DNA of 58,218 nt, filler included, from Asterionella formosa (taxonomy: Eukaryota), in NCBI GenBank assembly GCA_002256025.1. It is 6 parts of 6 records of this genome, joined end to end, with 100 filler letters (N's around TTAATTAATTAA, not from the genome) between each part and the next. Parts side by side here need not be neighbours in the genome. Positions count along the whole stretch, not along the records: positions 19,459 to 29,084 come from NKIB01010394.1; 5 more parts are not named here. The stretch is one strand, 5' to 3'. Under the pieces are notes generated by a model that did not search any database, was not told where the DNA came from, and saw nothing but the letters and a program-made list of their open reading frames with translations. The position numbers and the translations under genes are program-made. Positions 6,550 to 44,874 of the stretch are shown here, in pieces (the first letter of the stretch is position 1; each line of letters starts with the position of its first letter).

Positions 6550-8375
6550 TTAATCTGATGTTTCACTTTCTGAAAGCAGATGAAAATAGTGATCCCGCTT
6601 TCTCTTGCATATCTTAATTTCTAATTGGGCCTGAACTGCATCAGAATTATCGGAGTCATACCCATGATTTTCCAACTCTTCCAAATCCTTTCGAGCATTC
6701 TTGAGACGACTTTTATAGAGATCCAGAACATCTAGGATCTCTTTCTCGCGTCTTGGTGCTGCTGAAGATTGAAGCACTTGAATTTTCACTGCATTTACTC
6801 GTTCAAAACACTCTAATGCATTTGCCATTTGTACCATAGAAGAGGAATGATGGGAATGATGATTGGATGAAGTAGATGAACATTTTCCTTTCTTCGAGCC
6901 GACAGTCTTCGATGATAAGGATGAAGATTTGGTACTATCAGTACTTTCACGGAATGATGATTTTGGAAGCAATGGAACAGCGAAATTGAGAAGGTGAGGA
7001 ACTTGGCACAACCATAAATGGTAGTAATATACATAAGGTCAGCTTCCAACAAAATTAACAAAGTCATCATGACTTCCTGACTTTTTGTTGTTCCTGTATG
7101 CAATTTGGTAATGATAGTTAATGTACCCCATTGCCATAAAAAATTCGACAGAGGACAGAGTATCATACGTCTTTGGGTAACAACTGTCTATCCCCATTTG
7201 TTCCCAATAAGGATCTTGTGAAAAGGCAAGATTATTGCTGTCATCATCTTCATCATCAAGGAATGTAGTTATGAGTCTATCGAAAATGTATTTGTGCCTA
7301 AATTTTCTAATATCCAGTTCAGCCATACTAGTTGGATGCTGACCAAGCATCAACACATCACTTCTGTGTTGCTCACACATGTACACATTGATGACACGAA
7401 AATATGTGTTAGCACAAGTGACACTGCTTGGAGGAGTTGATTTTGCTACTGTAGCCTTTTTCTTTTTTGTTGCCTTCTTTGCAACAGGAGGAGGAAGAGT
7501 CAATGATTTGTCATCGTCATCACTGCTATTTTGCGAATTAAGAACATAGTCAGGGTCTTTGTCTGCTTCATTTTGCTTTTCTTTCTGTGAACAATCAGAG
7601 TCCATATCAACATTGCCACGACTCTTTTCTTCATCTTCAATAATAGATTCATCATTATTGCTGTTGTTGTTGTGGATGCCAATCACTTCATTATAAGTGA
7701 TCATAGTAGAAGGGGGGTATAGTTGACCAACCAGCCAGTCTCTTTTCAGTAAACGGAGAGTTAAGGAAATAGTGAAGTCCTTCTTGTCATTCCTGTACCC
7801 TGACACTTTAAATCTCACGCAAATTTTTCGAAGTACCTTGACAGATATATGTTTTATGTCAATTCCTTTTATATGAATCAATCCCAGCCCACTTTCATCC
7901 AGAACAAAGTCATCTGGTACTATGAGCAAGTTGACAAACTCATCAATACTGGCTAGACAACCGGGAAAGGGTTTCCTCTTTTCAGGGGGACCCATCACGT
8001 CAATGTCAAGAAGTGTACCAGCAGTTGCAGGTACTTTTTTTCAGATGGATCCATCTTTTCAATGTCAAGAAGTGTACCAGCAGTCGTTGCAGGTATTTTA
8101 TTTTCAGATGAATCCATCTCGTCAATGTCAAGTGTACCAGCAGTTGGAGGTATTTTCTGTTCAGGTGGACCCATCTCGTCAATGTCAGTTGGACCAGCAG
8201 TTGGAGGTATTTTCTTTTAAGGTGGACCCATCTCATCAATGTCGGTTGGACCAGCAGTAGACGACTCAACAATATCTTCGACATCCTCATCAGCTACAAG
8301 GCATTGATTCTTTTCCGAAATGGGAATATCGGCAGCATCGGAAGTTTCAGCTGTATCCACTACTTTGCTGCTCAT
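6550..8375 (-). pseudogene. Harbinger accessory ORF2 pseudogene (putative DNA-binding protein)
   Basis: ATG at 8375. ORFs 7039-7998 and 6550-7011 share a frame, split by one TGA (7039-7041). There is a further stop and frameshift in the 5' repeat region. Lies inside the TIRs, convergent with the transposase. Confidence 0.7.
7980..8260 (-). repeat. Coding tandem repeat, about 5 copies of 57-63 bp (TAGPTDIDEMGPPEQKIPP-like unit)
   Basis: Recurrent TCAATGTC...CCAGCAGT units visible on the + strand. Confidence 0.85.
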
Positions 8376-10311: not shown

Positions 10312-12038
10312 TTAGTTCCCAGATTTCCGAGTTTCAGCAACTGACAACATCTGCATGTTGTTTGTCTGGTAGTAGAAGCCACACAGACGATACATCCTTT
10401 AAAAGAGCTGGGTCATGGAAGTAGGTGTGTTTCAAGAAAGTCAAGTGGTTGGCAGATAATGCTTTTGGTATTTGTTGCAGAAGCACCAGATCCATGCTGG
10501 GGTACAAAAAACCCTTCAATGTGCAAGGGAAGAAGGAGGAGGCGCCTTGCGAAAGATTCATCATAATCAGTATTTGATATGAGTCCAGGAGATGCTTTGT
10601 CGTGTGGAAGACTTGAGCTTTGTGATCCACAAGTGGATGAGCAATCCTTTGCTGCCAGGAGACAAAGGAGGAGTGCTGTTCCAGTTTTAGCCAACATGTT
10701 GGGAAGGATGAGTGGGTGGTTGTTGGAAGCAAGCAAGCTGGTCATACTATTGCTGGGTCATGAATCATTGAAATCAAGCAACAGTTGATTGCTGATGAGT
10801 TACTCTTCCTGCCTGTTCCATGCCCATCAAGTTTCCTCCCATGCTGGTTCTCCACATTAAATCATCCACTGTTTTTGCTTTTGCAAGTTCCAGCCAGGAA
10901 ACCAACAGGACATGAGTGGAAATAACAATCAACCGTGAGTAATAGCATTGATGGTGCTGTCAAAGTCAACATCATGATTGTAAAACTTACCAACTCCTCA
11001 ATTGAGTACTTGCTTCAGTCAAGAGCCAGAAATGAGGCTTCTATCAAGGCACTGCTGTAACATCAAGGAAGAGTGCAAATGGTGATAAAAGCAATATATA
11101 TATATATTTAGTATTCATCAGTAGTCATAGTCAGTAAAAATCCATTTTGTCGTGCCCCTGGCGTCCGAATCCCATCCGAAAGAAGGACAAATGCTCCGTA
11201 TGATACTACGATACCGTAGTTTATACTATTAAATAGCTCACAATGCATATGCATAGTTTGTGAATTGCCTCAACAAAATGTGGCTATGTATCGGTATGTA
11301 CTCCTACAATCAACCAACATGCAGCACCCAGCCTCGCTCAAAGCCATGGCTGATGAAACCAGGGTCGTTCTCGCAGGTATGAACAGAGACTACCTGGTAC
11401 CTGATACCTCTGGCGTGACCTAATTACCAGGTACTCAGGTACGGAGTGTGTAGCATGCATGGTGCCTCCTGAGCAGTCACTTCCATTGTTAGTAAGTATG
11501 CAGTCTTCTCCTTTTGTCATAAAACCTGGTACTGGTGTTACTTCGAGGAGGACATCTTAACCATGTACCGAAATGCTGTTTCATGCCGCGGGATATGTGT
11601 ATGACTGTCCCAGATGAGGATTGTTACACGGTACCACGTGCGTAACAAATATAAATAGTCTATTTTACATCATAATTACAATTAAATGCATCAGCCATAT
11701 AATTGTGTTGTAACTACATAGGACAGATTGAGATCCCATGATCGTCATCAGCTGGCATCAAATCAATTTCCTACACCAATTGGGCATTTTGCTGTTATTG
11801 TAATTGTTATTGGATCGGCGTTGAATCGAGGGCACCTGGTACCAGGTACCATCACCACAAGTGTATATACGCACAGAACAGCAGATGATAGCAGCCCAAG
11901 AGTCACTGCAAAGATCATTGATACATTGCTGATATACTACTTATTAGAATCAGTTGTTCTGTATTTACAGGCGATCCAAAAGGAAGCAATTCGACGTCTC
12001 TGAATTGATTCTTGCATTTACATTGCTCTGCTCTGAGC

Positions 12039-13837
12039 ATGAGCACACCACCGCCCATGGACCTCATGAGCGATGATGCTTTATTGGAAGACTCTAATGC
12101 TATGCTGTTGAGCATGCGGAAACGAACGAGCATGACGGAGGACGAACAATCCAAGAAACGCGCTTCCATTAAAGAAATCATGCAAGATGAGACCCTCACT
12201 GCCCTGGAGCGACGCCGTTCGATTCAATCACTCATGGACGGACGCAGACAATCAGCTGGTGCGACGCAAGATCGTATGAGTATCGCCGGGAGCATGACCA
12301 TGATAGCGTCAGCAGCAGCCGCGGCGGCGGACTTTTACGACTCGGACGATGACTCGATGCAACACAATGCACTGACCAGACATTCCTACGGATTCAATGC
12401 GAGCACTCACAATGATGCTAATGAGGAGGATGACGACCAGACGGAGAGCTCCTTGTCCTCGGCTGGAGCTGATCTGCAGGATCGATCGGTACGGTCGGTC
12501 AGATCGCAAGAGTCGTCGCCTATGCCATCATCGCGTGGGGGATCCTTCCAAAACCATCCACGAGCTGGGAGGTCCGCGTCGTTGAAGGCATTTGCATCCA
12601 GTGCGGCAGCAGCCGCTGCTGCCGTGGTGGCGCAATTCTCTGACTATCCAGAAGGAGGCAACAATATGCGCATGGAGAAATCAAGACCTGAATGCGAACA
12701 CTATGAACGACAATGTTCCATCATTTCACCGTGTTGTCAACTGTGCTTTGGGTGTAGGATATGCCACGATGAATGTCCTGTTCTGCCCCCTCCATTCTCG
12801 GACTCGGAAAACAATTGCGATGCAGATGGTGCAGATACGGCGCGGAAGAAAGCCAAATTGGCAAAGCGCAGATCCTCGCAGTCGGATGACCAGCATCACT
12901 TAATTGATCGATTTGCAATTAAGGAAGTGATATGTCGCCAATGTTTTTCCCTACAGAGTTCAAAAACGTGAGTCATTTGCTGCGGCTCGGCTCGGCTGCA
13001 AGATAATTCGCTGTTTTTTATATATAATGTTCTTCTAACAGCGCTTGCGTACACCTGCAACTATCCAGAAATTCATGTATCAAATGCAAAACTCAGTTTG
13101 GGGAATATCACTGCATCATTTGCAACCTTTGGATGTCAGCAGACGAAGAACCGTACCATTGCATGGAATGTGGATTTTGCCGTGTCGGAGGTAGAGACAA
13201 GTTCCGTCACTGTCAGGATTGCGGCATGTGCATTGATGCTCTCTTGTTTGGTGATCACAATTGCAAGGCTGGCAAGTACATGTCCAACTGCCCCGTTTGC
13301 CAGGAGGACTTATTCTCGTCACGGTCTGCTTCTCATGAAATGCCCTGTGGTCATGCCATCCACTGGCATTGTTTTAGAGAATTAACATCCTTTGATACGC
13401 GATGTCCAGTTTGCAAAAAGACTGCAGAAACGCATGATCAGATGCAACCCACGTGGGCTGCCATGGCAATGGGAATTGTGCTTCAACCAGTCCCACCGGA
13501 AATGGCTCGTGCCGTTACCATACTTTGCAATGATTGCGAAGAAATTGACGAGGATCGGAGTTGGCACTTTTTGGGAGTCCAGTGTTTGAAATGCTCGAGT
13601 TTTAATACAACTGTCGAAAAGACAACCCTCGTGGGGCTCGATGCAGCGAATTTACTTGGGGACAATCTGAATGCAATGACTGTAAATAGCAGTGCAGCAC
13701 ATCTTATGTTTCTTGAAGAAGGTGCAGGATACATAAATCTGGAATATCTTGATGCACCACTGGCCGAGATCGCCCAATCCCCTACAGCTGAAACGGAAGA
13801 CGAAGGTTCTTCTGAATGCACTAAAATGGATCTGTAG
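12039..13837 (+). CDS. RCHY1: CHY zinc finger + RING-H2 + zinc-ribbon E3 ligase (Pirh2/RCHY1-like), 2 exons (12039-12967, 13069-13837)
   Basis: CEHYERQC...CRICHDE (CHY), YHCMECGFCRVG, CPVCQEDLF...PCGHAIHWHC...CPVC (RING) and ILCNDC...HFLGVQCLKCSSFNT. A 101-bp intron (GTGAGT 12968 ... CCAG 13068) restores the frame. Confidence 0.92.
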
Positions 13838-19458: not shown

Positions 19459-19459
19459 C

Positions 19460-19981
19460 CCTATTCATTTCACTCCCTCTGCTCCCATTGGATATCTAAT
19501 CACGCGTTTTGCTCAACCAATTAACCATCCTGCTGACCAACCTGTTTATGCTCCTTAGTCGGCCCCTATTGATTTCACTCCCTCTGCTCCCATTGGATAT
19601 CTAATCTCGCCTTTTGCTCAACCCATTATCCAACCTGCGAACCAACCTGTTTATGCCCAGCCGGTTCATCGTACTCCGAGCTTTTACGATTTGGAATATA
19701 ACTTCACGTGGAACATTCTAGAGGGTTGCATACTACCAACACAAGAATACTACGAAGGACAATTTTGTGCAGATCCTGTGGAATGTCTTTTTTCTTGCAG
19801 TAACAGCATCTACGGGTACCTTGATGCCATTGTGTATTTTAAGTACATGAATGATTATGGATTCAACTGCATTTGTCATCCTAGCGCCACTTCTTTGAAA
19901 AGAATTAAACAGCTGTTTTTTGTATTGTACGATCGAACAAGCCAATGTCAGGGCCATGTAACCGTAATAAGCCTTTCATAA
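19460..19981 (+). pseudogene. 3' fragment of a Pro-rich repeat protein with a Cys-containing (WSC/PAN-like) module
   Basis: Two 105-bp (35-aa) direct repeats starting at 19459 and 19564 (PIxFTPSAPIGY...QPVYA), in frame with ORF 19691-19981. One TAG at 19556. The 5' end is cut by the linker. Confidence 0.45.
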
Positions 19982-21512
19982 AAAAAAATTGGGAATGTTG
20001 ATGTAAATGTGTGAAAAAGAAAGTAGATGAAACATTAATCTATATTTTTGAATTTATTTGCTTGCCAAAAATGCGAACAAAATCTACAGTTTCATCTTGA
20101 ATCTTGAGACAAAATAACAAAACTCCTTGACATTGCAAGTAGTATTTACCAATTTGCTGATTTTGTTTGTTGGTGGCGGGCACCCTAGATACTTTTCTTG
20201 AATTGAAACTTTGATTCCAGAAATTGGGGTGCATCTTTGTGAAAAACAAAGAACGAATAATGGACTATCTCTATGGTGGGGAACTATTCATGTTGACCTT
20301 AGTTGAAAATGACTTTTGCTTTCTAATCTGACATTTGAGCAAAAAGGGACTTGTAAACCTTCACCTTGGCACAATAGCAACCAAATCAAGACCTTTAACA
20401 CTAATTTCATTTGATCGTTTGAGAATGCAATTTGCCTTTAAAAGGAAAAAGATAGCACTAGGATACACCCTTGACTCGGGCAATCTCCTGAAAGAATCGG
20501 AGATTTGTGATTTATTGTACACCGAAACTTAATGATGGCTACTTTACGGCGCTAGCTAATGCATAACTACAGAATTCCAATAGTCTCAAAATCATGACTA
20601 TATATCTTTTAAAAAGCTCCACTTTATATCATGAGTGAGAGCATTGTCATCATTTTTTGTTGGGCTTGTTCGTGGCTTGATGAATGTTAATATAAATAGG
20701 TCGTGTAAACGCACTAAATCAATTTGTATCCATACCGATTTCCTCCACTATGCATGCATATACATATATACATAGAAAGAGGGACCGACAATCATCCTTC
20801 ATCATGTAAATAGTGTCGCGAATATCATTTGTTGTTGTGCTGTTGTAATGGCTGAGGAATTGGTGGTAGTTTGGCCATACTGGCTTGGATTTCTGCTGGT
20901 GTCTTTTCACGCGACTTGTAATATTCCGAATTACGAACAGATTTGCATTTATCCAATTGAGCCTTGAGTTGAGCAGGAACTGGAAGATCTTTCATTGTTT
21001 GAATAGATGATGAGAGAAGAAGGGAAGAGCTTTACTAATAACAAGACGACAGATCGGCGTCGAAAGGGCTACCGGTATGAATATATTATTGTATGGATGG
21101 ATTACATGAACAATGAACACAAGTCAAACAAAGTTGGATGTGGCTACCTGTACCACGGTGGTGTGCTTTTACTATTTGCTTTATAGACACTGACACACAT
21201 GAAGATTCCTGATTCCACATCTGAATATGAGTGAATGAGCCAATCATTTCCGTCCTCGTTTTCATACTTGGTTAGCATAATCACTATGTAGCTTTATCAA
21301 CATTTTATTTACTATACTGTACAGTACTGCACTGTACTGTACTCTACTTATTCCACTATTACCTAATCGGTAATGATTCTTATTTTTCCATTCTACCGTG
21401 ATGTTGTGACGACAGTTACTTCGTGTCAACCTCCGGCTCCAATGGAACGTGAACAAATCCTTTCTCGATCCGCCAAAAACAATGTGTGTAATGTTCATGC
21501 CGTAGCTAGCTG

Positions 21513-24500
21513 ATGTATGAAATCAAAATGACAGTGTTCCATCATTGGTGGGAACAAACGGCCATGACATGGCCAGAATCGGTAGAAGAATGGAATAACC
21601 ATCAGTTTGATGGTAACGGCAATGAACTTTCCTATGAATCACTCGTACTACTGGGTACTTCCATGGTTTCATTATTAAGAAATCAAATGAAGATCAAGCG
21701 TACTAGTGTGTTGGCGGGTCGCGATTGTTGCCCAATCGTTGTTGCACTTCCACACGGTGGTCCGATTTTGGCATTGGTAATTTTAGCCATTCATGTCTTG
21801 AATGAACCCAACAACAACTGCAACAACAATCAATATGCTGTACTAGTAACCATGGATCCTAATGAAGGGAATGAACGATGTAAGCGAATGTTACAAGAGT
21901 GTTCACCAGCCATTATCCTGGTCATGCCAGGGAAGGATATGGAGACGATGCATCAATTGATCCAAGAGATGAATAGCAGTAGCAGTAGCAGTAGTAGCAT
22001 CAGTCCTCCGGATCTGCTAAATGCCTCTGAGTTGTTAGCCAATAGTATGGAAAAGGCCAGCACGATAGATCGAGTCTTGTTCCAACAGCAACTCAGCTCT
22101 ATTCCAAATACGCAAGATCTCTCGACGACAATTCTTCAACTTGAACAACAACTACTGCAAGTACAGAAAGACGAAAACATAATGACATTGTCCCACAACA
22201 ACAGCAATACTACTGCCCATACTATTTCAATCTCCACTGAAAATCGATTGTCACATATATGTTTCACCAGTGGCTCCACTGGGATACCCAAAGGGTGTCA
22301 ATCCTCCATTTTCGCATTACGAAATTATATCCTTGCCAAGAATCAGGCACATTCCATTACATTCCAATCCAAAGTACTTTTGGCCAGTACCATATCTTTT
22401 GACCCATGTTTTTCTGATATTTTAGCAACCTTTTATATAAGGGCAACAGTGATGTTGATACCACGACATGATCAAAACATAGTACCCTCATGGCTCCAGG
22501 GTGTCACTCATGTTTTGACAACACCCACTGTATGGAATGCATGGACAACAGATTGGAATCTTACTGCTGCAACTACTACTAGTAGTAGTAGTAGTTGCTG
22601 TAGTACAACTACTACTGACAAAGACATTCATTCATTATTGTCGTTGCAAGTTATTGCATTAGGTGGTGAACCGATTCCAAAAAAACTTGTTTCCAAATGG
22701 GCTAGGCATGGTGGTACTACCTGCTCTCAAAACCAGCACCAAAAGTACCCTCAATTATTTGCCACCTATGGAGTTACTGAAGCATGTGTGTATCAGACCA
22801 TGGGAGAAGTGTTGTTGGGTGATGACAATGTGTCACATGTTGGGACATGTATGTATGGCAATCATGTCAAGATAGTACCACAACAGGGAGGATCGTTGGA
22901 TATCAACAATCATGGTGTAGGCGAAGTTGTATTGTTTGGAACACAAGTTGATGAATATAGTGGATATGTGAATCGACCAGAATTGACCAAGGAGAAGTTC
23001 ATTCTTGAGGATGGCCAATATCTATACAAAACTGGTGATCTTGGGTACCTGAAGGATGGCAATTTACACATTGTAGGACGGATTCATGGTCAAGAGGGTA
23101 TGGTCAAGGTGAATGGAGTTCGAATTGAGTTGGGAGAAGTAGAAGCTGCTTTGATGGGATTGGATTATGTCGTTTCGGATTGCATGGCAGTGGCCCGAAT
23201 CAGCGACAACGAGTCTCCCAACAAACAAATTCAAGCCTTTATTGTTTTGACTATAGAATGTTTGACCCAACTAAAATTACAGCGCGATTCTATCCCCGAG
23301 ACTGGCGTACTTTGCTCGACAGGACCACTGTTGGTACTTCTCCGGGCACAGTGTCGATCACTACTTCGAATCATGCCATTTGCATTTGTTATTATTCCTC
23401 GTGTCCCAGTATCCCCGACTGGAAAATGTGACCGGACCAGTCTTCCACAGCTTTCAGAATGCACATTAACGTTGGATCGGCTAATACAGGGTGGATCTTC
23501 ATCGTCCATTCCGCTCTGGGACTATGGTGAATCTGGAGTAGTCGTTGCCGAACAGATAATTGAGTGCTTGAACTTACAAGGTTGTCAAAAGGACTTGGTC
23601 ACTACGACTGCGAATTTTTCCATGCTGGGAGGTGATTCCTTGGGTTCTACTCGAATTGTGAGAGCCCTGTATGCGTACCATCACCGTGTTCCAAATACAC
23701 GTGACCTCGGAGGTGCATTTGGGACATTGGAAGGACCATTTGCTGTATCACATCTCATCACATCCAAAACGATGCAAGAGTATGTGGATTGGTTAGACAG
23801 CAATGGAGTATGCGGACCCAAGGGTAGTGATGACAGTATAGTGCAGGAGCGTCGAAACGCCAACAACCCTCATGATACGAAGCACTCTGTAGTGGACAAG
23901 ACCACTCTACTTAAGTCAGAACTTTTCGATGCACTTTTGGAGACTATAACAATGTCACAATTCACAATCGCGCTTGAATTGCTGATTCATGCCGGAGTGG
24001 ATCCAAACTTCGGTGCTCATGGTGGCCGATTATCAAAAATTCATCATCGCATCGATCGAAGGAAGACCTTTACATCGAATCCATTGCATCTGGCATGCAG
24101 CAAGGGTCATTTTAAACTCGTCGAAACCTTATTGCAAAAGGGGTGTAAGTTTAATACTCCTGATGCTTCCGGTATGTTTCCAATTCACATTGCTGCATCA
24201 GGAACAGCTTCTCCTTCATCTTCAACCACGTCGGAACAACAGCAACATGAAAATGATCAATCTCGCCGAAAATGCCTCGAACTGCTACTCGACGCTGGTG
24301 CTCCATTGTCCATGAAGGACGGGAGCAAACAGACTGTGCTTCATGGTGCAGCTCGAGCCGGGAATGTTGAATGTCTTTTATTCTTACTTGCAAAGTGGAA
24401 ACAAGGATTGGCCAATGGAAGTATCTACAATTATAATAATGACAAGCACAAGGGTGGGGAATATGATTGGACTGATCATTGGTACCGCACACCAGTGCAT

Positions 24501-24731
24501 TGGGCTGTTCTGAATGGAAAAGTAGATGCCCTCGCTGTCTTGCTAGAAGGTGGATGTTCGGCAGAACCTGCCATGCTTTCGAAACAACGAAGTACCGCAC
24601 GAACCAGTGCTGAATTGGAAAGTCCCCTAGAAATTTGTCAACGTCTGTATGGAGGAAGTGAACTCGGTGACCGTCTGGCGACGCTCTTGTTGAAATGGAA
24701 GGAAGTTCAAGAGAAAGATTCCAGTAATTGA
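21513..24731 (+). CDS. NRPS-like protein: adenylation domain - carrier (T/PCP) domain - ankyrin repeats
   Basis: A-domain cores FTSGSTGIPKG, SFDP, TYGVTE, GEVVLFG...SGYVNRPELT, YKTGDLG, KVNGVRIELGEVE and PVSPTGKCDR. T motif FSMLGGDSL (Ser at 23637-23639). Ankyrin repeats NPLHLACSKGH, FPIHIAA, TVLHGAARAGN and TPVHWAVLNGK. Confidence 0.92.
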   Translation: MYEIKMTVFHHWWEQTAMTWPESVEEWNNHQFDGNGNELSYESLVLLGTSMVSLLRNQMKIKRTSVLAGRDCCPIVVALPHGGPILALVILAIHVLNEPNNNCNNNQYAVLVTMDPNEGNERCKRMLQECSPAIILVMPGKDMETMHQLIQEMNSSSSSSSSISPPDLLNASELLANSMEKASTIDRVLFQQQLSSIPNTQDLSTTILQLEQQLLQVQKDENIMTLSHNNSNTTAHTISISTENRLSHICFTSGSTGIPKGCQSSIFALRNYILAKNQAHSITFQSKVLLASTISFDPCFSDILATFYIRATVMLIPRHDQNIVPSWLQGVTHVLTTPTVWNAWTTDWNLTAATTTSSSSSCCSTTTTDKDIHSLLSLQVIALGGEPIPKKLVSKWARHGGTTCSQNQHQKYPQLFATYGVTEACVYQTMGEVLLGDDNVSHVGTCMYGNHVKIVPQQGGSLDINNHGVGEVVLFGTQVDEYSGYVNRPELTKEKFILEDGQYLYKTGDLGYLKDGNLHIVGRIHGQEGMVKVNGVRIELGEVEAALMGLDYVVSDCMAVARISDNESPNKQIQAFIVLTIECLTQLKLQRDSIPETGVLCSTGPLLVLLRAQCRSLLRIMPFAFVIIPRVPVSPTGKCDRTSLPQLSECTLTLDRLIQGGSSSSIPLWDYGESGVVVAEQIIECLNLQGCQKDLVTTTANFSMLGGDSLGSTRIVRALYAYHHRVPNTRDLGGAFGTLEGPFAVSHLITSKTMQEYVDWLDSNGVCGPKGSDDSIVQERRNANNPHDTKHSVVDKTTLLKSELFDALLETITMSQFTIALELLIHAGVDPNFGAHGGRLSKIHHRIDRRKTFTSNPLHLACSKGHFKLVETLLQKGCKFNTPDASGMFPIHIAASGTASPSSSTTSEQQQHENDQSRRKCLELLLDAGAPLSMKDGSKQTVLHGAARAGNVECLLFLLAKWKQGLANGSIYNYNNDKHKGGEYDWTDHWYRTPVHWAVLNGKVDALAVLLEGGCSAEPAMLSKQRSTARTSAELESPLEICQRLYGGSELGDRLATLLLKWKEVQEKDSSN

Positions 24732-25412
24732 GGAGATTGTCAATTAGGCGAGACTATACAGATGCCTGCCATTATTCTTCGTTTGTCTTTCCACACCTCA
24801 ATACAGTTACCACATCCAAAGGTATTCAAAATATGACCATTCTTACAAACCACATAACATGCAGATTTTGTTTAAAAAAAAACAGCCTATTATATCCATC
24901 AGTCATATTTGAATATTTGGAGTAACTTTATAGAATATTGCAACATTTGAGTTCGAGTCACACTTGATCAATTCCTTGATCTGTGCAGAAAAGTTTAACC
25001 ACGACTGAATTCATGCAGTGGTCCCAAGAATGCCGGTGTATATGTATAAATATATTTTGGTATGTACAATATAGGGTATGCATTGATCACTGAGCTTCGT
25101 CCGCATTATCAATATCAGGAGCGGACGCGTGATGACCACCAATCATTAAAGGAACTGAGTTCGCCTTACTCTGTTATTTTGTATAAGAAATATATATAGG
25201 CTGTTACATTTTGACGAAAAATAAAAGCGAGCAATGTCTAAAGTATGAATATATTTTTAGTAAGTAGTGTATATATATATATGCAAGGCGCAGAAAACAT
25301 CACTTTCACATGGGCACTGATGCTCTTTAAACACATCAAAGGACCTTTGAAGAAGACGAGCCTTTTGTAACCATAATCTATCCATAAAAGTATACTACCG
25401 TAGTCTACACAC

Positions 25413-27209
25413 ATGATCTTGGTCACGAAATCATCATGGGGTTTGTTGATGCTATTCAATACGATGGCCTGCGCCTTCCTTCCGACGCCTCGAATTACCT
25501 TTCAAAGAACACATGAACGACTCCTCCTTGCGACGACAGCAGCAGAGTCCTACTCCTCCGAAGCAGCATCCGTACTTGACATCGCTACCCTTCCAAATCT
25601 GTTCCCAGAACTTGCCACATCCCTTCATTTACTTGGATTTGTCACTCCTACGCCCATTCAATCTGCTGTTTCTCAACAAGACAACAACAACAACAATTGT
25701 TTACTAATTGCACCTACTGGATCTGGAAAGACCTTGGCTTATTTGATAAAAGCGTTGACCAAGGCCATAGAGACGGATGGCACAATTTTAATGGTGGCAC
25801 CCACTCGAGAGTTGGCTGTTCAACTTGCCAAGGATGCAACTGCCTTATTATCTGGCTTTGGAAACGGTGATGCCAGTGATGCTGTCGTTTTGGCAGTACC
25901 TGGTATTCCCCTATTGGGAGAAAATATTGGTCAAGCCACACTATTGGTGGGAACTCCAGTGGAATTGATTCATGTCATTTCCAATGTCGCCGGAGGGGGA
26001 GAATTTATTGCTGGAGATACGTTGTGTGCAATTATACTAGATGAAGTTGATGTTCTCTTGCCCCTTCCACCCAAGCAGCTTCGTACCTCTCTCGATGATA
26101 CCAAAGGTGGTGGACCTAAAGTAGCCAAGAAGAAATTTGATACAGCTCAAGACGAACGTCGCAAACAAGAGCAAAAACGAAAGCTCTTGACGGCCAAACG
26201 ACAAGGTGCGGAAACAACGAATAACAACAAACAATTGATTGCCCCTACAGAAAAATTATTAAATCTGATAGCATCAAATCGATTTGTTGGAGGTGACAAT
26301 GCCGCACCCCCCTTGGTGTTGGCAGGGAGTGCCACGGCCAGTCGGCGAACGTTGGACCGATTGAATCAGGCGCTAAAGGGTGCAGCAGAACAGGGGGGAG
26401 CAGCAACATTTGAAAGAGTTTGGTCAAGTCTGGTAAAGACGGTTCGACCAGAAGAGGCCAGTACCAACCAAGATATTGACGATGACGAAGATGGAGAAGA
26501 AAAACAACAACATATGATTCGTGCTGTGTCGGTACCGCAACAAGTCAAACACAGATATGTTTCTCTTAGCAAAGAGCAAGCATCCTCATCGACCGCCGTC
26601 CTTGCTGCTGTGGCCAAAGCTGCCAGCATTTTGAAACCAGAAACGGCATTAGTTTTCATTTGCGGAGAATTTGCCAAATCAATTAGCAAAGAAAAGACTG
26701 TTGTCGTTGCTAAGCCAGCAGGTAAAACATCTCAAGCGCGACGTGACGTGTTGAGAAAGCGTGATGCCATTGTTGCCAAAGGACCCAGCAACAAGTCCAC
26801 TAGCAGCGAACCCTTGTCAGCACGACGCGCTTGTGCCATGTTGAAGGACCTTGGAATTGACGCACAGCCACTTCACGTAGCTCTTGGTCTAGAAACGGAT
26901 GCCAAGGAACAAATCAATGATGGTGGTGCCGGCTCTCGCTTTCTGGTGACGTTTGAAGGCTCGGCTCGTGGATTGCACTTGGAAGAAGTGGATGCTGTCT
27001 TTGTGGTGGGTCGGCCCGCCTCCGCAGCGTCCTATTTGCATTTGGCAGGTCGTGTTGGGCGATCATGTCCGTCCACCGGAGGGGGTGTTGAAATTCGTCC
27101 AGGAACTGTTGTGTCACTCTGCACCAAGGGAAGTGCCACCGAATTGGAGAAGTGGACCAAACAAGTGGGTGGTACAGATCTGGAGGAAATAATCTTGATT
27201 ACTAAATGA
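25413..27209 (+). CDS. DEAD-box-like RNA helicase, probably plastid-targeted
   Basis: Q motif GFVTPTPIQ, I APTGSGKT, Ia PTRELA, Ib GTP, II DEVD, III SAT, V SARGLH, VI HLAGRVGR. N-terminal signal peptide ends in ACA-FLP (ASAFAP-like). Confidence 0.88.
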   Translation: MILVTKSSWGLLMLFNTMACAFLPTPRITFQRTHERLLLATTAAESYSSEAASVLDIATLPNLFPELATSLHLLGFVTPTPIQSAVSQQDNNNNNCLLIAPTGSGKTLAYLIKALTKAIETDGTILMVAPTRELAVQLAKDATALLSGFGNGDASDAVVLAVPGIPLLGENIGQATLLVGTPVELIHVISNVAGGGEFIAGDTLCAIILDEVDVLLPLPPKQLRTSLDDTKGGGPKVAKKKFDTAQDERRKQEQKRKLLTAKRQGAETTNNNKQLIAPTEKLLNLIASNRFVGGDNAAPPLVLAGSATASRRTLDRLNQALKGAAEQGGAATFERVWSSLVKTVRPEEASTNQDIDDDEDGEEKQQHMIRAVSVPQQVKHRYVSLSKEQASSSTAVLAAVAKAASILKPETALVFICGEFAKSISKEKTVVVAKPAGKTSQARRDVLRKRDAIVAKGPSNKSTSSEPLSARRACAMLKDLGIDAQPLHVALGLETDAKEQINDGGAGSRFLVTFEGSARGLHLEEVDAVFVVGRPASAASYLHLAGRVGRSCPSTGGGVEIRPGTVVSLCTKGSATELEKWTKQVGGTDLEEIILITK

Positions 27210-29184: not shown

Positions 29185-31549
29185 ATGGATGATTATGGCC
29201 ACTTGACTCAAGGATAGGACACATAAACTCTTCTTGTCGTTTCTCCCAAAATGCTGCAGTTACACTGATATTAACTTCTTTCCTTGAATGAATCGATGTA
29301 CTACCGCAATACATAGTTTCATTATGTATTCCAGGATCTCGATGTTCTTGCTTGCAATGTCGACAGTGACCATATGCATGAAAAACACGGTTTCTACAAT
29401 TTCGATTGTGAGACTCAGATGGGGATTTGTTCTTCCAAAATGTGTAGTTACACACCAGATAACACCATTGCTATGTCCGCAAAGACATTGCAAATGTCAA
29501 ATGATGACCAAGTCAGGATATGAACAGGATAGAATGAAATTGAATTAATATATAATAATAAATTTGGCATCACTCCGAACATGTTGATCTGGACAATACA
29601 GAATCATGAAATTATCACTCCACCATAGTAGTAAAAATGGAGGTATACCGCTACATATATTACAGGCGGCAAAACTGGTATAGAGCAGCGTAAATTTTTT
29701 CTTAACTTCTATGATATGGTTTTCATTGTAGAAGTCTCACTAACTATATTTTTTAGGATGTAACTAAGTATGCATTGGATTCTATTAAATCCGTTCAAAA
29801 TCAATGCCGTCATCAATGGCCCGGTGATAAATGCGGTCAGTGTAATCAATATTCTCATCAGGAACATTTGGTTGAAATGGTTCAACATATTGATGCATAA
29901 GCTCTTCACTCACATTTAGAAATGAGAAGTATGAGTGTGGTATGATATTTGTGGTAGAAGTAACAACTCCACTAGGATTCCTTTCATATTCAGATCGATT
30001 CTTTCGTGAAAGTCCAGTGTAGATTTCCTTAAAATAAATGAGTAAATCATCAGTCCATTGAGTAGTGAGACCATTTGAAACTGAACTTTCTTCCCTCACA
30101 CTTTTTTTAATAAGTGGTTTCCCACCAATGTCGACAAAATCGTTAGAATGACGAATATTGTTCTCTGAAATTTCATGGGTATCTGGATTGGAACCCAAAT
30201 ATTTTTGTTGCAATCGGAATTACAAAGAAGCAAAATGCTTCTGTACTGGCATTGATCAGCGAACCAACAAAACGTGATTGCAATTCACACTGTGCCCAAA
30301 GACTGAGTTGAAATTTGGTCACACCAGATTTGTCTCTTGTTAGAAATGGTTCTCCATGGCTTGTCCTGCCTATAAAATACACTGGAGCAAGAACATCACG
30401 CCAGACTTGGTTTCCTTGGCTTCCCTGTCAATGTCCTTTGACTGCGCAAAACGTTAAAGCGTGAACGCCCACCTAATAAAGTCATCAATATCCATAGTCT
30501 GGAAGTTATTTTCTGTTAGACCAGCTGGTGTGTCATGAATTATGTTAGCATTTTTAAATTGAAAAATATTTGATAAGAATATAATCACCAAATTAAAACA
30601 TCATGCTTTGGGAGCATCTCCCTGTAACTTACCTATGATTCCTTTAAATTGATTAGTATTCAATACATTCTGACATTCTGTCAACTTTTTTAATGCACAT
30701 GCCACCAAATGTTGATTTGATGTAATCTAAACGTGCCTTGTTGGTACGTTCAATGGTCTGATTCATCGGAAGTAGTGCATCAGAACCATTCCATATGAAA
30801 TCGACAAGCTCTGGGTCACTCTCCAATTCTTTGCCTAACTCTGGTTTCACTGTGTATAGCCGAGTTATGCAGGTCAACATTGGGCAAACCAATCCTGTTT
30901 GTGATTGGAAATGCCTTTCATACTACTTGGACCAGATAGGGCGGGATGTTTGATTCTGTTTTGGGACCAGAAAAAGACCAGAAAAAAGCACATTTGATTG
31001 ATATTCTGTTTTACAGTACCTGCAATTCACAAACTATAACATCAAACTTACATGTTCACAGCAAAACTTCTTGGTATTGGAAATAAAACTCACAACCTTT
31101 GTGCTGAAATTGAAGATTCTTGATAACCTTGTATGGACGATTTTTGAACCGAATTACGACCTTTGTAGTGATTGAGTTCATTGACCAATTGATAATATCC
31201 TTTGGCAAGTGAAAAATGTTTTTCCCTCAGTTTGTCATGTACTTGTTGGTCCGTGCAATTAGTAAATGTATGATATGGTACCATGTTGTCCATCTGCATC
31301 CGGGAGTTATTAATGGTATCATCGACAGGAGCCTTTTTTCTTGTAGTAACAACTGAAGAAGAAACTTCATCTTCGTTTTCAGTATCAATGAGGGGATCCT
31401 GTGTAGCTGATGGTGTCCCTATCGACGCTGGGGTAGTACCCCAACTAACTCCCTGTTGCCGATTGGGTTCCTTTGGATAATTGCCGATTCGCTTTTTCTT
31501 TGTTATCTCATTTTGGTACTTGCCTCTTTGTTCCATACCAGCAGCAAAG

Positions 31550-32717
31550 CCCTCAAATCCAATGCTCTTCCAGGTATTGGTGATTGTTTGAATTGAGACT
31601 CTAGCCCATGCCATCTCTACCCATTGTACAATGTGGTGCCTTTGCACCTTGGCATTATCCACATTGGCAACCATCCAGTCTTCCCAATATCCTCTCATGT
31701 ATTCCTTGAAGGGCTTATTAACTCCTACATCCAACAGTTGAAGTCTAGATGTGTAGCCTGGGAGGATGAAATCAACCTCAGTGCCGCATTTTTTAATTGC
31801 ATCAACATAACGTCCTACCTTGTGGACAGTAAAATCATCCATAAGAAGGTGAGTAGGCTCACCGCCTTTTCCCAACGCAAATGGTCGCCAAACTTTTTCG
31901 ATCCATTGTAAAAATATGTCTGTATCAATCCAAGCTTTGGGTTGACAAGCGTATTTAATACCAACAGGAAAAAGTTGTTGATTGTTGTCTAGTAAACCCA
32001 ATTGCCTGGCAATGCATCCATCCCTTGTTCCTGTAAATACAATGAATGGTGGCAACTTCAACGGTTCGAATTTCCTGTTGTTCGAGGCCCAATGGTCCTT
32101 TCGCCTCGGGTTGCCAAAGTCTTTGATCCAAACATGTCAAAATTGATGTTTGTCTCATCAATATTGAAAATGTTTCCAGCAGAAAATTCGAACGCAGCAA
32201 TTTGATTGTTGACGTAATAAACAAAATCTTGAATTGTCTCCTGATTCAGCCTTGTATTTTGGGCGACATGAGTCACACGCCTAATGACAATGTCCTTACG
32301 GGCAAGCCAGCGCTTGATCCGTTTTTCAAGTGCCTTCAGCGACAAATTTTCGTTCCCAGGTTGCCTCTTAAGCTCAACACTGAGCATCCTGGTGGTGCAG
32401 GCCCTATTTTGAAGCTGCAACTGGTCGAAACGAGTCTTCAATCCTTCGAAATCAGCAGCACTTTTTGGAGAGCGGCCCGGGTGAGCGATTTTTTTCATCA
32501 ACACCTGCCTCTGAATCACACCTTCTTCCTGCAGAGGAATCTCCGCCACCTCCGCCGGAACCACAACCATTGCACCATCCAGCATGGACTTCCAGCTCCG
32601 GATCTGCTTTGGCTGAACCAAATATGCTCTGGCGGTTGCCTTGATATTGTTGGGCTTGCTATATGCTTCCGCAACAATATATTTCTTTTGCCTGATGCAG
32701 AGATAATTTTTTCGTTG
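31550..32717 (-). mobile_element. pogo/Tigger-like (Tc1/mariner superfamily) DD35D transposase pseudogene
   Basis: N-terminal HTH-like NIKATARAYLVQPKQIRSW, then FNIDETN, KLPPFIVF, KAWID, LLMDDFTVH and YTSRLQLLDVGVNKPFK (35 aa between the 2nd and 3rd Asp). Frameshifting deletion at ~32060. Confidence 0.88.
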
Positions 32718-40271: not shown

Positions 40272-41546
40272 TTATGGGGTGCCATTTGGGTCTGGTTGAA
40301 CCTTGTTACCAGCGGTACAAAAGGTAATAAAGGCAGTATGTCCCCTCATGGTAGCAAAAGGTCGAGCCACAATCATTCGTTTTCGTGGTGGCAATAATGG
40401 TGAATCGTCGTCGCCTGATTTACTCTCAACCATTGCCAATCCTCCATTGTCGTCTTCCTTGTCTGGTACTTGCTGATCCAAAGGAATTTTTCCACTGAGT
40501 TTCTGAGACACAATGGGATTGGCTTCCACACGAGGTCGCTTTTCTGTTGGTGGTCCCCACAGTTCAATCGGATCGACATAGTGTTCTCGTAGTCTCACTT
40601 CAATTGTCTTGATAGAATGAAAGCCACATTCCTTGAGTACCGCAATGGTTCGTTGTGATTGTTCCACACATGGCGAGTAACTACCCAATCTACCCCCGCA
40701 CTTTAAAGTATAGGCCGCATGAGGGACTGCCAACCATGGCTCGGGTAGATCCAAGAAAATGGCATGCGCTTGTTGGCTTCCCAACAAAAAGCCTCCCCCC
40801 TTTCCATCCTTATTACATACATCTCGATGATGGACAGTTACTAAATGATCTACCTTGTTTTTGATAAATTCCTGTCGAGCTGTTTCGGCCCGCATTTGAT
40901 TGAATTCAAACGTATGCAACGTCCCATGAGGAGCAATGGTTCGTAATATAAAGTGTGACATGGCCCCACTCCCTGTTCCCGATTCACAAACCACCATGTT
41001 GGGGGTGAGGCCCAAGTACCACACAATCATGCTGGCATCCAATTCATGTACAATTTGTGTCCGATGTGGCAACGACCGCGCCCACAATTCTGGAGTTGGT
41101 TTGAGTAAATAAACAAATCCATACCCCTGATTGTCTGCTGATCGGATCTTGCTTCCAAATGGTTTTCCAATAAAGTCATCATGTGGGAAATGCCCATTCT
41201 TGTTGTTGAACCGGGCGCCTTGTTGACAATACACAAAGTTTAAATTGTCAAAGGATTCAAAGATGACAACTAAATCACCATTTTGAATAATACTTGATGT
41301 GGGAAGAACACGTTCCGTGTAGAGTTTGCCATCTGCCTTGGCAGGGTCGGAGGTTTGAAATAGATCGAGTGCAGATTGATTGGCCGCTTGGAGCAACTGT
41401 TGGTCCACCGTTGGTCCGGCCACAACAGTCGATGTCAGCAACGATTCGTCAACTGAAGTACAAGTAGTATCAGTCGTTGGAACTATTCGAATTCCAGACT
41501 TGGCAGTCACTCCGCCTTCCTTTATGTGTGCTCGGGCGAAATCCAT
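40272..41546 (-). CDS. TRM61: tRNA (adenine58-N1)-methyltransferase catalytic subunit (Gcd14/TRMT61A)
   Basis: LLKPTPELWARSLPHRTQI, ESGTGSGAMSH, FEFNQMRA, FLDLPEPW, YSPCVEQ and GHTAFITF. Confidence 0.95.
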   Translation of the reverse strand: MDFARAHIKEGGVTAKSGIRIVPTTDTTCTSVDESLLTSTVVAGPTVDQQLLQAANQSALDLFQTSDPAKADGKLYTERVLPTSSIIQNGDLVVIFESFDNLNFVYCQQGARFNNKNGHFPHDDFIGKPFGSKIRSADNQGYGFVYLLKPTPELWARSLPHRTQIVHELDASMIVWYLGLTPNMVVCESGTGSGAMSHFILRTIAPHGTLHTFEFNQMRAETARQEFIKNKVDHLVTVHHRDVCNKDGKGGGFLLGSQQAHAIFLDLPEPWLAVPHAAYTLKCGGRLGSYSPCVEQSQRTIAVLKECGFHSIKTIEVRLREHYVDPIELWGPPTEKRPRVEANPIVSQKLSGKIPLDQQVPDKEDDNGGLAMVESKSGDDDSPLLPPRKRMIVARPFATMRGHTAFITFCTAGNKVQPDPNGTP

Positions 41547-42435
41547 ACTCTCTCTCACTCTTCCTTTTGCTGTTGTTCAATATATACACTTTATCAAATN
41601 NNNNNNNNNNNNNNNNNNNNNNNNNNNNNNNNNNNNNNNNNNNNNNNNNNNNNNNNNNNNNNNNNNNNNNNNNNNNNNNNNNNNNNNNNNNNNNNNNNNN
41701 NNNNNNNNNNNNNNNNNNNNNNNNNNNNNNNNNNNNNNNNNNNNNNNNNNNNNNNNNNNNNNNNNNNNNNNNNNNNNNNNNNNNNNNNNNNNNNNNNNNN
41801 NNNNNNNNNNNNNNNNNNNNNNNNNNNNNNNNNNNNNNNNNNNNNNNNNNNNNNNNNNNNNNNNNNNNNNNNNNNNNNNNNNNNNNNNNNNNNNNNNNNN
41901 NNNNNNNNNNNNNNNNNNNNNNNNNNNNNNNNNNNNNNNNNNNNNNNNNNNNNNNNNNNNNNNNNNNNNNNNNNNNNNNNNNNNNNNNNNNNNNNNNNNN
42001 NNNNNNNNNNNNNNNNNNNNNNNNNNNNNNNNNNNNNNNNNNNNNNNNNNNNNNNNNNNNNNNNNNNNNNNNNNNNNNNNNNNNNNNNNNNNNNNNNNNN
42101 NNNNNNNNNNNNNNNNNNNNNNNNNNNNNNNNNNNNNNNNNNNNNNNNNNNNNNNNNNNNNNNNNNNNNNNNNNNNNNNNNNNNNNNNNNNNNNNNNNNN
42201 NNNNNNNNNNNNNNNNNNNNNNNNNNNNNNNNNNNNNNNNNNNNNNNNNNNNNNNNNNNNNNNNNNNNNNNNNNNNNNNNNNNNNNNNNNNNNNNNNNNN
42301 NNNNNNNNNNNNNNNNNNNNNNNNNNNNNNNNNNNNNNNNNNNNNNNNNNNNNNNNNNNNNNNNNNNNNNNAAACAAACCATGGAAAAAATACAATGACA
42401 ATAAAATTTAGCATAGGCCACCCAGTATGGAGGTG

Positions 42436-43779: not shown

Positions 43780-44526
43780 GTTTGTGTCGAATTCTCAGTG
43801 AACGAGTGCGAGGGGGNNNNNNNNNNNNNNNNNNNNNNNNNNNNNNNNNNNNNNNNNNNNNNNNNNNNNNNNNNNNNNNNNNNNNNNNNNNNNNNNNNNN
43901 NNNNNNNNNNNNNNNNNNNNNNNNNNNNNNNNNNNNNNNNNNNNNNNNNNNNNNNNNNNNNNNNNNNNNNNNNNNNNNNNNNNNNNNNNNNNNNNNNNNN
44001 NNNNNNNNNNNNNNNNNNNNNNNNNNNNNNNNNNNNNNNNNNNNNNNNNNNNNNNNNNNNNNNNNNNNNNNNNNNNNNNNNNNNNNNNNNNNNNNNNNNN
44101 NNNNNNNNNNNNNNNNNNNNNNNNNNNNNNNNNNNNNNNNNNNNNNNNNNNNNNNNNNNNNNNNNNNNNNNNNNNNNNNNNNNNNNNNNNNNNNNNNNNN
44201 NNNNNNNNNNNNNNNNNNNNNNNNNNNNNNNNNNNNNNNNNNNNNNNNNNNNNNNNNNNNNNNNNNNNNNNNNNNNNNNNNNNNNNNNNNNNNNNNNNNN
44301 NNNNNNNNNNNNNNNNNNNNNNNNNNNNNNNNNNNNNNNNNNNNNNNNNNNNNNNNNNNNNNNNNNNNNNNNNNNNNNNNNNNNNNNNNNNNNNNNNNNN
44401 NNNNNNNNNNNNNNNNNNNNNNNNNNNNNNNNNNNNNNNNNNNNNNNNNNNNNNNNNNNNNNNNNNNNNNNNNNNNNNNNNNNNNNNNNNNNNNNNNNNN
44501 NNNNNNNNNNNNNNNNNNNNNNNNNN

Positions 44527-44874
44527 GTACCACCTGAACCTGAGCATCTAAAGACAACAGTCATCATGCCATTCGTTGCTGGGAGTGTGGAATATTCGGG
44601 ACGACATGATCATGGTGTATTAGATATACCAAAACAACGTCGACGAGATGTTGGACATGATTATGATGATATTGCCATGTTAGTAGCTTGTTGTGACGAT
44701 GCCAAAGCATTTACGAATGAGTACTTGACTTGTGTCATTCAAACCGAGGAAGAAGAGGAACTAATACTGAGGAAACAACAACAACAAAAGGAGAATACCA
44801 CAATCGTGTCTTCGAAGGATGATCGACATGAAGCAAAGAGGAGTAAGGTAGAGATAAGCGACGAGGTATCATAA
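44527..44874 (+). CDS. 3' part of a small uncharacterised protein (5' end probably in the gap)
   Basis: Frame is open from the gap edge to TAA at 44874. Contains an amphipathic helix, an acidic stretch and an AKRSK NLS-like end. Confidence 0.55.
   Translation, partial: VPPEPEHLKTTVIMPFVAGSVEYSGRHDHGVLDIPKQRRRDVGHDYDDIAMLVACCDDAKAFTNEYLTCVIQTEEEEELILRKQQQQKENTTIVSSKDDRHEAKRSKVEISDEVS

Follow-up and report, generated by a model that had tools for sequence, protein, structure and literature searches.

A nonribosomal peptide synthetase-like protein with an ankyrin end in the diatom Asterionella formosa: a candidate free-standing amino-acid loader

The locus

We analysed a stretch of 58,218 nucleotides, filler included (the window), assembled from six parts of the Asterionella formosa genome assembly GCA_002256025.1. 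Its longest open reading frame (ORF), at 21513..24731 on the + strand, starts with ATG, is intronless and encodes a protein of 1072 amino acids. In this protein an adenylation (A) domain and a carrier or thiolation (T) domain of the kind found in nonribosomal peptide synthetases (NRPS) are followed by ankyrin repeats (ANK), and we propose that it loads an amino acid for use in trans. The A-T-ANK protein is a variant of the NRPS-like A-T enzymes. The features of the gene are as follows; pLDDT denotes the predicted local distance difference test score of the structural models.

21513..24731, + strand: complete coding sequence, 1072 codons and a TAA/TAG-type stop, no intron (ORF, codon checks, upstream stop)
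21403..24854, + strand: approximate transcribed unit, given by the outermost RNA-contig ends (X1 records 4 and 6; X6 records 24 and 25; X4 records 17, 18 and 21)
21540..23078, + strand: large N-terminal adenylation subdomain, about residues 10-522, motifs A1-A7 (Pfam, invariant motifs, full-length model)
21930..22232, + strand: insertion that varies across the family, placed between A2 and A3 (about residues 140-240), with a poly-Ser run and predicted helices at 171-184, 187-196 and 203-223 (alignment, model)
22266..22295, + strand: motif A3, TSGSTGIPKG, T252-G261 (alignment, codon check)
22398..22418, + strand: motif A4, FDPCFSD, in which D297 aligns with the FD-motif Asp of LgrA
22545..22613, + strand: Ser/Thr-rich low-complexity insertion, about residues 345-367, pLDDT < 50 (model, RNA breaks)
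23079..23462, + strand: small C-terminal adenylation subdomain, about residues 523-650, with R523 and K532 of A8 and K638 of A10 (alignment, codon check)
23424-23426, + strand: codon of the A10 lysine, K638 (codon check)
23505..23807, + strand: carrier domain, about residues 665-765; helices 2 and 3 are separated by an unusually long loop (model helices 675-685, 709-724, 745-750 and 754-763, pLDDT about 90)
23637..23639, + strand: codon of Ser709 in GGDSL, where phosphopantetheine is predicted to be attached (invariant in the alignment; codon check)
23808..23897, + strand: variable linker, about residues 766-795, of low pLDDT and unconserved (alignment, models)
23898..24725, + strand: ankyrin-repeat domain of five to six repeats, about residues 796-1071 (Pfam, VIA, Foldseek, conservation)

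The gene and its transcripts

An in-frame TAG at 21507-21509 lies just 5′ of the ORF, so the frame cannot extend in that direction and the protein must start at M1 or M6; the ATG triplets of the 5′ leader are all out of frame. Among the public runs that match the stretch, 10 of 11 rows are recorded as RNA, several of them being poly(A) libraries of lake or freshwater samples. The contigs of four runs were compared with positions 20800-25600; they inform on presence and continuity and not on the level of expression. Those which define the two halves of the transcript are listed here.

21457-22574: X1 record 4
22572-24854: X1 record 6 (2283 nt)
21403-22574: X6 record 24
22550-24852: X6 record 25 (2306 nt)
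21444-22542: X4 record 17
22572-24182: X4 record 18

The 3′ contigs X1 record 6 and X6 record 25 run without a gap from the A5-A10 region through the carrier and ankyrin domains to the stop codon, so the ankyrin part does not belong to a separate gene, an eventuality that the initial annotation had raised against itself. The adjoining transcripts stay clear of the locus, one ending near 21083-21103 and the other beginning near 25307-25341.

The locus might instead be an artefact, with two genes fused in the gene model, or might encode a pseudoenzyme. What might suggest such an artefact is that the whole ORF is spanned by no single contig: all four RNA runs break near 22545-22601, and no record bridges this point with 31 letters on each side. 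The break, however, falls within the adenylation domain, at a codon repeat rich in Ser and Thr, and not between domains, and A5-A10, the carrier and the ankyrin domain are joined in the contigs of 2283 and 2306 nt. The frame is moreover open for 1072 codons, the same domain order occurs in more than 200 relatives and the catalytic residues are all invariant. We regard an artefact or a dead gene as extremely unlikely. The A-T-ANK gene is nuclear, intronless and expressed, and comes from a (freshwater) diatom; the intact ORF initially annotated here stands on the frame itself, the upstream stop, the codons and the RNA contigs.

A 99%-identical protein of 1065 amino acids is encoded on an assembly contig of 3449 nt, a length that matches the 21403-24852 span. 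Two codon repeats in the adenylation domain, at 22545-22613 (Ser/Thr-rich) and 21975-22001 (poly-Ser), are length-polymorphic between the RNA data sets and mark where the short-read assemblies all break, and X6 carries a 3 nt insertion (ACT) behind 22571. The only joint within the ORF among the RNA contigs is a 105 nt skip (23890..23996) in one X2 contig, at a depth of 9.9, with 21 letters on the short side and AG..GG ends; we consider this too weak to indicate an intron or an isoform. A 32 nt skip at 24850..24883, observed in X2 and X4, lies in the 3′ untranslated region and looks like a strain indel.

The adenylation domain

The Pfam AMP-binding family (PF00501) matches residues 109-479 with 111.6 bits, well above the gathering cut-off of 29.9. 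Codon checks place A4 at F296 and D297, A5 at Y419-E423, A7 at G508 and D509, and A8 at R523...K532. A1 and A2, which had not been claimed before, are present in divergent form (LSYESL at residues 39-44; '...LVPxDPxE' in the corresponding region of the family consensus). The motifs A3-A8 and the A10 lysine assigned in the initial annotation hold up well, since their key residues do not vary in any of the 114 aligned relatives: T252, S253, G254 and K260 of A3; F296, D297, P298 and D302 of A4; G384, G385 and E386; G420, T422, E423 and Y427 of the A5 region; G508 and D509 of A7; R523, K532, G535 and R537 of A8; and K638 of A10. Judged by these sequences, it is strongly supported that the domain has every catalytic motif of the amino-acid-activating members of the acyl-CoA synthetase, NRPS adenylation domain and luciferase (ANL) enzymes.

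Among solved structures the best sequence matches for the adenylation part are NRPS A domains, LgrA first (8.9e-38). In the HMMER alignments the FD of A4 aligns with the FD of both LgrA modules, and residues 321-464 of 1amu pair with residues 417-562, from which T418, V426 and Y427 are assigned to pocket positions 322, 330 and 331. The other residues of the pocket, by motif register, would be D297, P298, S301, T339, A382, G384 and K638. Across the 114 aligned rows D297, P298, A382, G384, T418, V426, Y427 and K638 are invariant or nearly so; we know of no specificity code that matches the pocket residues of A-T-ANK proteins.

The full-length model (pLDDT 86.3, predicted template-modelling score, pTM, 0.79) is uncertain solely at residues 1-8, 354-365 and 782-791. 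Its top matches, over about 770 columns at E ~1e-25, are EntF in the thioester-forming state (5t3d) and LgrA in the thiolation state (5es8). The two-subdomain fold of A domains is evident, with EntF, LgrA, DltA and ApnA matched at E values of 1e-23 to 1e-26 and template-modelling (TM) scores on the target of up to 0.80. The modelled A domain fits DltA (3e7w), MenE (5x8f), PltF-PigG (7thq) and VinM-VinL (8k4r) with target TM scores of 0.76-0.80, better than it fits 1amu (0.62).

In NRPS A domains the Asp of the FD motif binds the amino group of the substrate. The invariance of D297 argues for an amino acid, although for no more than this substrate class. A fatty, aryl or keto acid might be activated instead, as in fatty-acyl-AMP ligases or the fungal A-T-thioesterase enzymes that use keto acids, and long-chain-fatty-acid-CoA ligase models of NCBIfam do score 79-87 bits. 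The best NCBIfam model, however, is that of amino acid adenylation domains (TIGR01733), at 177 bits, while the DltA, Lys2 and acyl-CoA ligase models fall far under their cut-offs, and the Asp aligned to the FD of LgrA is retained in all 114 relatives. We think a substrate other than an amino acid very unlikely.

The carrier domain

The carrier domain is less readily recognized. PP-binding (PF00550) matches residues 695-721 of the window protein with 14.7 bits and the cut-off is 20.8, so of the three domain families expected from the initial annotation AMP-binding and Ank lie above their cut-offs and PP-binding does not. At the aligned place the cut-off is reached in 20 of 47 relatives (2 of 17 from diatoms, 18 of 30 from the wider set); a further nine diatom and seven wider relatives have a match below it, and six and five, respectively, have none. 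Both G707 and S709 are kept in all of the 114 aligned relatives, in agreement with the earlier reading of GGDSL as the phosphopantetheinylation motif. In an AlphaFold2 (AF2) model of residues 641-1072 the second, long helix of the predicted carrier bundle begins at S709, and the long loop between helices 2 and 3 is itself conserved. Given the Pfam matches in relatives, the invariant serine and the predicted fold, we take the carrier domain as real, though Pfam alone would not call it in the window protein.

The ankyrin domain and the search for a release domain

Five Pfam ankyrin families exceed their cut-offs over residues 848-1015, led by Ank_2 (68.1 bits), Ank_4 (63.6) and Ank (58.7). The AF2 model of residues 641-1072, built from a 78-row alignment (pLDDT 88.7, pTM 0.85), is all-helical and proceeds from a carrier-type bundle through a low-confidence linker of 30-40 residues to ankyrin helix pairs that continue to the end. 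Searches with this model by Foldseek and, independently, by VIA returned ankyrin proteins exclusively. The VIA matches reach Z scores of 19-20.3 over about 188-214 residues of the ankyrin domains of RNase L, DARPin, Varp and AnkB, and the solved structures matched by sequence in this part are likewise designed or natural ankyrin proteins. The ankyrin domain first annotated is therefore confirmed; the number of its repeats, given as about five, is five to six. A conserved insertion at about residues 836-852 is found in diatoms only.

No domain for release of the product was identified. Condensation, thioesterase and reductase families are absent from the eight Pfam families listed for the window protein at E <= 1, and from the precomputed Pfam lists of 94 close relatives. 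In residues 641-1072 neither AF2, Foldseek nor VIA gave any non-ankyrin fold beyond the carrier, so a hidden catalytic domain, the possibility that structure prediction had been proposed to check, was rejected. In the models the whole chain is accounted for by the A domain (about 10-650), the T domain (about 665-765), the linker and the ankyrin domain (about 796-1071), with no room for another. The lack of condensation, thioesterase and reductase domains noted at the outset is thus supported by both Pfam and the fold searches.

The ankyrin domain might still take a direct part in the chemistry. If the enzyme were an Ebony-type amide synthetase, the thioester would be attacked by an amine or alcohol of low molecular weight, with the ankyrin domain, rather than a partner protein, forming the acceptor site, and an aminoacyl-amine or ester would be produced. 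The logic would be that of Ebony, which combines A-T with a non-canonical, amine-selecting C-terminal domain. The pTM of 0.85 for the T-ANK model is high for two domains, which may mean that the carrier and the ankyrin part are predicted to be packed against each other; the VIA matches are headed, level with designed repeat proteins, by the ankyrin sensor of RNase L (Z 20.3), a domain that binds a small ligand; and the long loops of the ankyrin domain are conserved in diatoms. Against this, few ankyrin repeats are known to bind small molecules, no catalytic-looking residue beyond the repeat consensus is conserved in both clades of the family described below, and in the matches of the full-length model the carrier goes with the adenylation domain, as it does in structures of the thiolation state. 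We judge an Ebony-type synthetase unlikely. Docking of the carrier on the ankyrin domain was also predicted, and the score of 0.00 against a mark of 0.34, from a single job without controls or alignment, speaks neither for nor against binding.

A family distributed over several eukaryotic supergroups

Close relatives of the window protein number 94 at E <= 6e-117. AMP-binding and Ank are listed for 92 of them, the remaining two being short pieces. Each of the 12 with an organism name comes from a diatom, centric or pennate, and Skeletonema japonicum and Phaeodactylum tricornutum (XP_002184250.1) were added by a cluster look-up, which bears out the diatom source. Below the gap that follows this set lie bacterial NRPS (E ~1e-45), together with three remote A-ANK proteins: one designated P0098 and two of Symbiodinium. 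In a search with P0098, 116 of the 120 listed matches carry AMP-binding and Ank; the names in this wider set include at least 17 chytrid genera, Balamuthia mandrillaris, the green algae Cymbomonas and Tetraselmis, and the dinoflagellates Symbiodinium, Durusdinium and Effrenium. The system had been placed in diatoms. It is not specific to them: chytrids, Balamuthia, green algae and dinoflagellates have the same architecture and adenylation signature.

The A4 signature FDP[CS]..D is present in 92 of 95 proteins of the diatom set and 99 of 120 of the wide set, and the A5 signature YGVTE..VYQ in 79 of 95 and 88 of 120, respectively, with fragments making up most of the misses. Scores against a profile of the A core are 450-577 bits for diatoms, 213-381 for the wide set and 130-195 for bacterial NRPS. 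For a tree of the A core, 83 rows were chosen by hand for named taxa and spread, and 80 remained after P0268, P0100 and P0114 were dropped for short or split matches; this was a quick tree search, rooted on a hand-picked outgroup of 18 bacterial NRPS domains ranked nearest by a word-based search. The 62 eukaryotic rows split from the 18 bacterial rows with a Shimodaira-Hasegawa-like approximate likelihood-ratio test (SH-aLRT) support of 99. All 18 diatom rows group in a single clade (support 100), to which a long stem of 0.89 leads; 42 wide rows form another (99) and two Symbiodinium rows stand apart. By the measure of the common A4 and A5 signatures, the profile scores and this tree, the A-T-ANK proteins are one family, within which diatoms are a divergent, long-branched clade. 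The family is old and spread over several eukaryotic supergroups. Its members bear generic or automatic database names such as 'hypothetical', 'srfAB', 'ppsB' and 'SimD6'.

A library-wide phmmer search with residues 655-1072 gave 307 proteins at E <= 1e-30, of which the best 150 were classified.

49: family-like, at least 850 residues; 49 of 49 have the A core and T-ANK
16: family-like, shorter, with a cut A domain; they start mid-profile, the A domain being cut at residue 1
20: family-like, shorter, no A core; they start mid-profile
65: giant generic ankyrin proteins, outside the family

The 36 family-like proteins of less than 850 residues were considered as separate T-ANK genes; they start mid-profile and we read them as fragments from short contigs. 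The 490-residue protein P0399 covers the entire T-ANK unit and may be either a fragment or a separate gene. In the 85 family-like proteins among these best 150 of 307 the chain continues for at most 57 residues after the ankyrin domain. Residues 645-1072 compared with longer proteins gave 138 matches, and AMP-binding occurs in none of the 120 listed, all of which are generic ankyrin proteins, so that this search gave no longer, fused version of the family. A scan of metagenomes with the family alignment detected 59 loci at 24-31% identity, all bacterial NRPS and none a member of the family. The nearest Atlas clusters without ankyrin are bacterial A-T didomains of 526-579 residues with AMP-binding and PP-binding, which we treat as a lead only.

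Nested in the family is P0351 of Effrenium voratum (1137 residues), in which the A-T unit is followed by a calcineurin-like metallophosphoesterase in place of the ankyrin repeats. This could be a real domain swap or a fusion of gene models.

Comparison with known systems

The suggestion that the system is undescribed is consistent with the literature searched, in which no functional study of the A-T-ANK architecture was found; subscription journals and supplements lay outside the search. Single-function domains, likely to act in trans, of polyketide synthases (PKS) and NRPS, often fused with HEAT, ankyrin or pentatricopeptide (PPR) repeats, are reported for the Symbiodiniaceae (PMC6361889), and the A-ANK proteins of Symbiodinium, Durusdinium and Effrenium belong to the family described here. 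In its text that report is a genome-survey remark, without function, family definition or distribution outside dinoflagellates. The accessible parts of two other sources mention ankyrin just with FabD-like acyltransferases (PMC8283056) and describe other architectures in a chytrid (PMC2823734).

In diatoms the functions of NRPS-like enzymes are stated as not investigated, A-T-R1-R2 (where R is a reductase domain) being the sole architecture characterized: PtNRPS1 converts tryptophan to tryptophanol (PMC13194791). It resembles the window protein, as do the fungal ATRR enzymes, in being of the single-module NRPS-like kind, and it is the only diatom one found with an assigned function. The two differ in that the product of PtNRPS1 is released by its two reductase domains, whereas Pfam finds no reductase in the window protein.

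The C-terminal fold of animal AASDH is a β-propeller, and that of Ebony is a catalytic amine-binding fold. AASDH (ACSF4-U26) is described as a β-alanine-activating enzyme, possibly involved in post-translational modification (PMC10531068). Like the window protein it has A-T followed by a non-catalytic repeat domain, lacks condensation, thioesterase and reductase domains and has a physiological role that is likewise open. In contrast, the C-terminus of the window protein is an ankyrin solenoid, all-helical, and Pfam gives it no match to a PQQ-type repeat family. Ebony of insects is a further single-module NRPS-like enzyme that dispenses with a condensation domain in releasing its thioester (PMC10531068). 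The window protein differs from it in ending with a plain ankyrin domain.

Lys2 has a reductase, for which there is no family match in the window protein, and its model TIGR03443 scores 72.9 bits against a cut-off of 1030.1. The DltA models score 111.9 against 476 bits (NF003417) and 99.5 against 559.85 (TIGR01734), and the carrier of DltA is encoded separately whereas that of the window protein is fused. Nor is this a canonical NRPS module, that is condensation, A and T domains with release by a thioesterase or reductase, as the window protein has no condensation, thioesterase or reductase domain.

Bacterial free-standing A-T didomains of the SyrB1 or CmaA type follow a similar logic. They have no release domain, the tethered amino acid is processed by free enzymes and the thioester is used in trans. 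They differ in lacking ankyrin repeats and in belonging to biosynthetic clusters, while the window gene sits among housekeeping neighbours; the eukaryotic A-T-ANK family also forms a clade of its own against the 18 bacterial A domains. The comparison brings in the possibility that the ankyrin domain stands outside the chemistry and localizes or regulates the enzyme, by attachment to a membrane, the cytoskeleton or a complex or by auto-inhibition, while unrelated free enzymes modify and remove the amino acid. The nearest look-alikes without ankyrin being bacterial free-standing A-T proteins is in keeping with this, at the level of a lead, as is the metallophosphoesterase of P0351, and the dinoflagellate fusions of single PKS or NRPS domains to ankyrin, HEAT or PPR repeats reported in that survey (PMC6361889) suggest generic scaffolding. 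On the other side, an alignable ankyrin series in the same place in 116 of 120 listed and 92 of 94 relatives across supergroups argues for tight coupling to A-T. We hold a purely localizing or regulatory ankyrin domain to be doubtful, though it deserves to be kept in mind.

Proposed function

On balance we lean towards a free-standing amino-acid loader from which the aminoacyl thioester is removed in trans, with the ankyrin domain serving as a docking platform. Adenylation followed by thioester formation on a phosphopantetheine arm is established NRPS enzymology. A phosphopantetheinyl transferase would prime the carrier, and adenylation of one fixed amino acid would follow; that a single amino acid is used is suggested by pocket residues that barely vary across the family. 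The amino acid would then be thioesterified onto the phosphopantetheine arm at Ser709. The thioester would have no exit in cis, and it would be taken by a partner docked on the ankyrin domain, be it an enzyme of tailoring or transfer or a protein that serves as acceptor. The loading half of this mechanism, adenylation and formation of the predicted thioester on the carrier, is well supported by motifs and models; the ankyrin-mediated hand-off to a partner is what we infer from the architecture.

Several observations weigh against such a role. The TIGR01733 score of 177 bits falls under the curated cut-off of 317.4, the protein being divergent with several insertions, and the PP-binding match of the carrier also lies below its cut-off. 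The ankyrin residues conserved in both the diatom and the wider clades are almost all structural residues of what we take to be the repeat consensus, which gives no sign of one deeply conserved ligand patch; a patch of this kind was looked for and discarded on these grounds. Nothing among the neighbouring genes suggests a partner; their products are a DEAD-box helicase, an LCAT-like acyltransferase, a CCCH-RRM protein, RING/CHY zinc fingers and an OSCA/RSN1 channel. Finally, the outgroup of the A-core tree consists of the 18 bacterial NRPS domains alone. Of the phylogeny called for at the start, the separation from bacterial NRPS was obtained, and AASDH, Ebony and Lys2 are absent from it.

A more far-reaching form of the proposal is that A-T-ANK proteins are the writers of an old and widespread eukaryotic protein modification independent of the ribosome, in which a fixed amino acid, first loaded as a thioester on the enzyme's arm, would pass to a side chain of a client protein bound in the groove of the ankyrin domain. 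We consider this distinctly unlikely. Were it true, it would represent a thiotemplate counterpart of the thioester relays of E1/E2 type, and possibly the protist counterpart of animal AASDH. A different idea, that the family supplies the missing amino-acid-adding enzyme of algal mycosporine-like amino-acid synthesis, fits poorly with a family that is present in chytrids and an amoeba.

The wide phyletic spread together with the fixed pocket points to a conserved cellular role and not to lineage-specific secondary metabolism. Single-module NRPS-like enzymes of eukaryotes have repeatedly proved to perform unexpected primary-type chemistry, as seen with Ebony, Lys2, the fungal glycine-betaine reductase and tryptophanol synthesis in diatoms. 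Among them the A-T-ANK proteins stand out for a pocket that is almost fixed from chytrids to diatoms, for having no product release of their own and for a protein-docking domain. Their function, once known, would establish either a novel route to a metabolite or a novel type of protein modification, and might also shed light on the still unexplained AASDH of animals. The ortholog in a model organism, P. tricornutum XP_002184250.1, makes this function readily testable.

Neighbouring genes and other features of the window

Around the A-T-ANK gene the flanking genes in the window form no biosynthetic cluster and are ordinary housekeeping genes. In addition to those named above they include a DDE transposase, GCD14 and a cyclophilin. 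The transposase ORF, at 31090-32061 on the − strand, has a DDE_1 endonuclease domain (E 7.8e-20) and is probably the remnant of a DNA transposon in the diatom scaffold; the ORF adjoining it, at 32058-32621, has no family match. At 12012-13837 on the + strand two adjacent ORFs encode a CHY zinc finger and then a RING finger with zinc-ribbon_6, the domain set of an E3 ligase of Pirh2/RCHY1 type, and the pair is probably one gene split by an intron.

Between about 41.4 and 47.1 kb overlapping ORFs in up to six frames (for example 41380-42520, 43715-44874 and 46212-47132) extend over runs of N and are artefacts; the low GC of the composition profile in this region is due to the same runs. The cyclophilin ORF, at 46543-47940, lies partly over an N run. 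Two tandem repeats were observed: one at 7977-8243, with a period of 57 and 4.5 copies, and one at 19459-19656, with a period of 105 and 1.9 copies, which is intergenic and upstream of the neighbouring gene.

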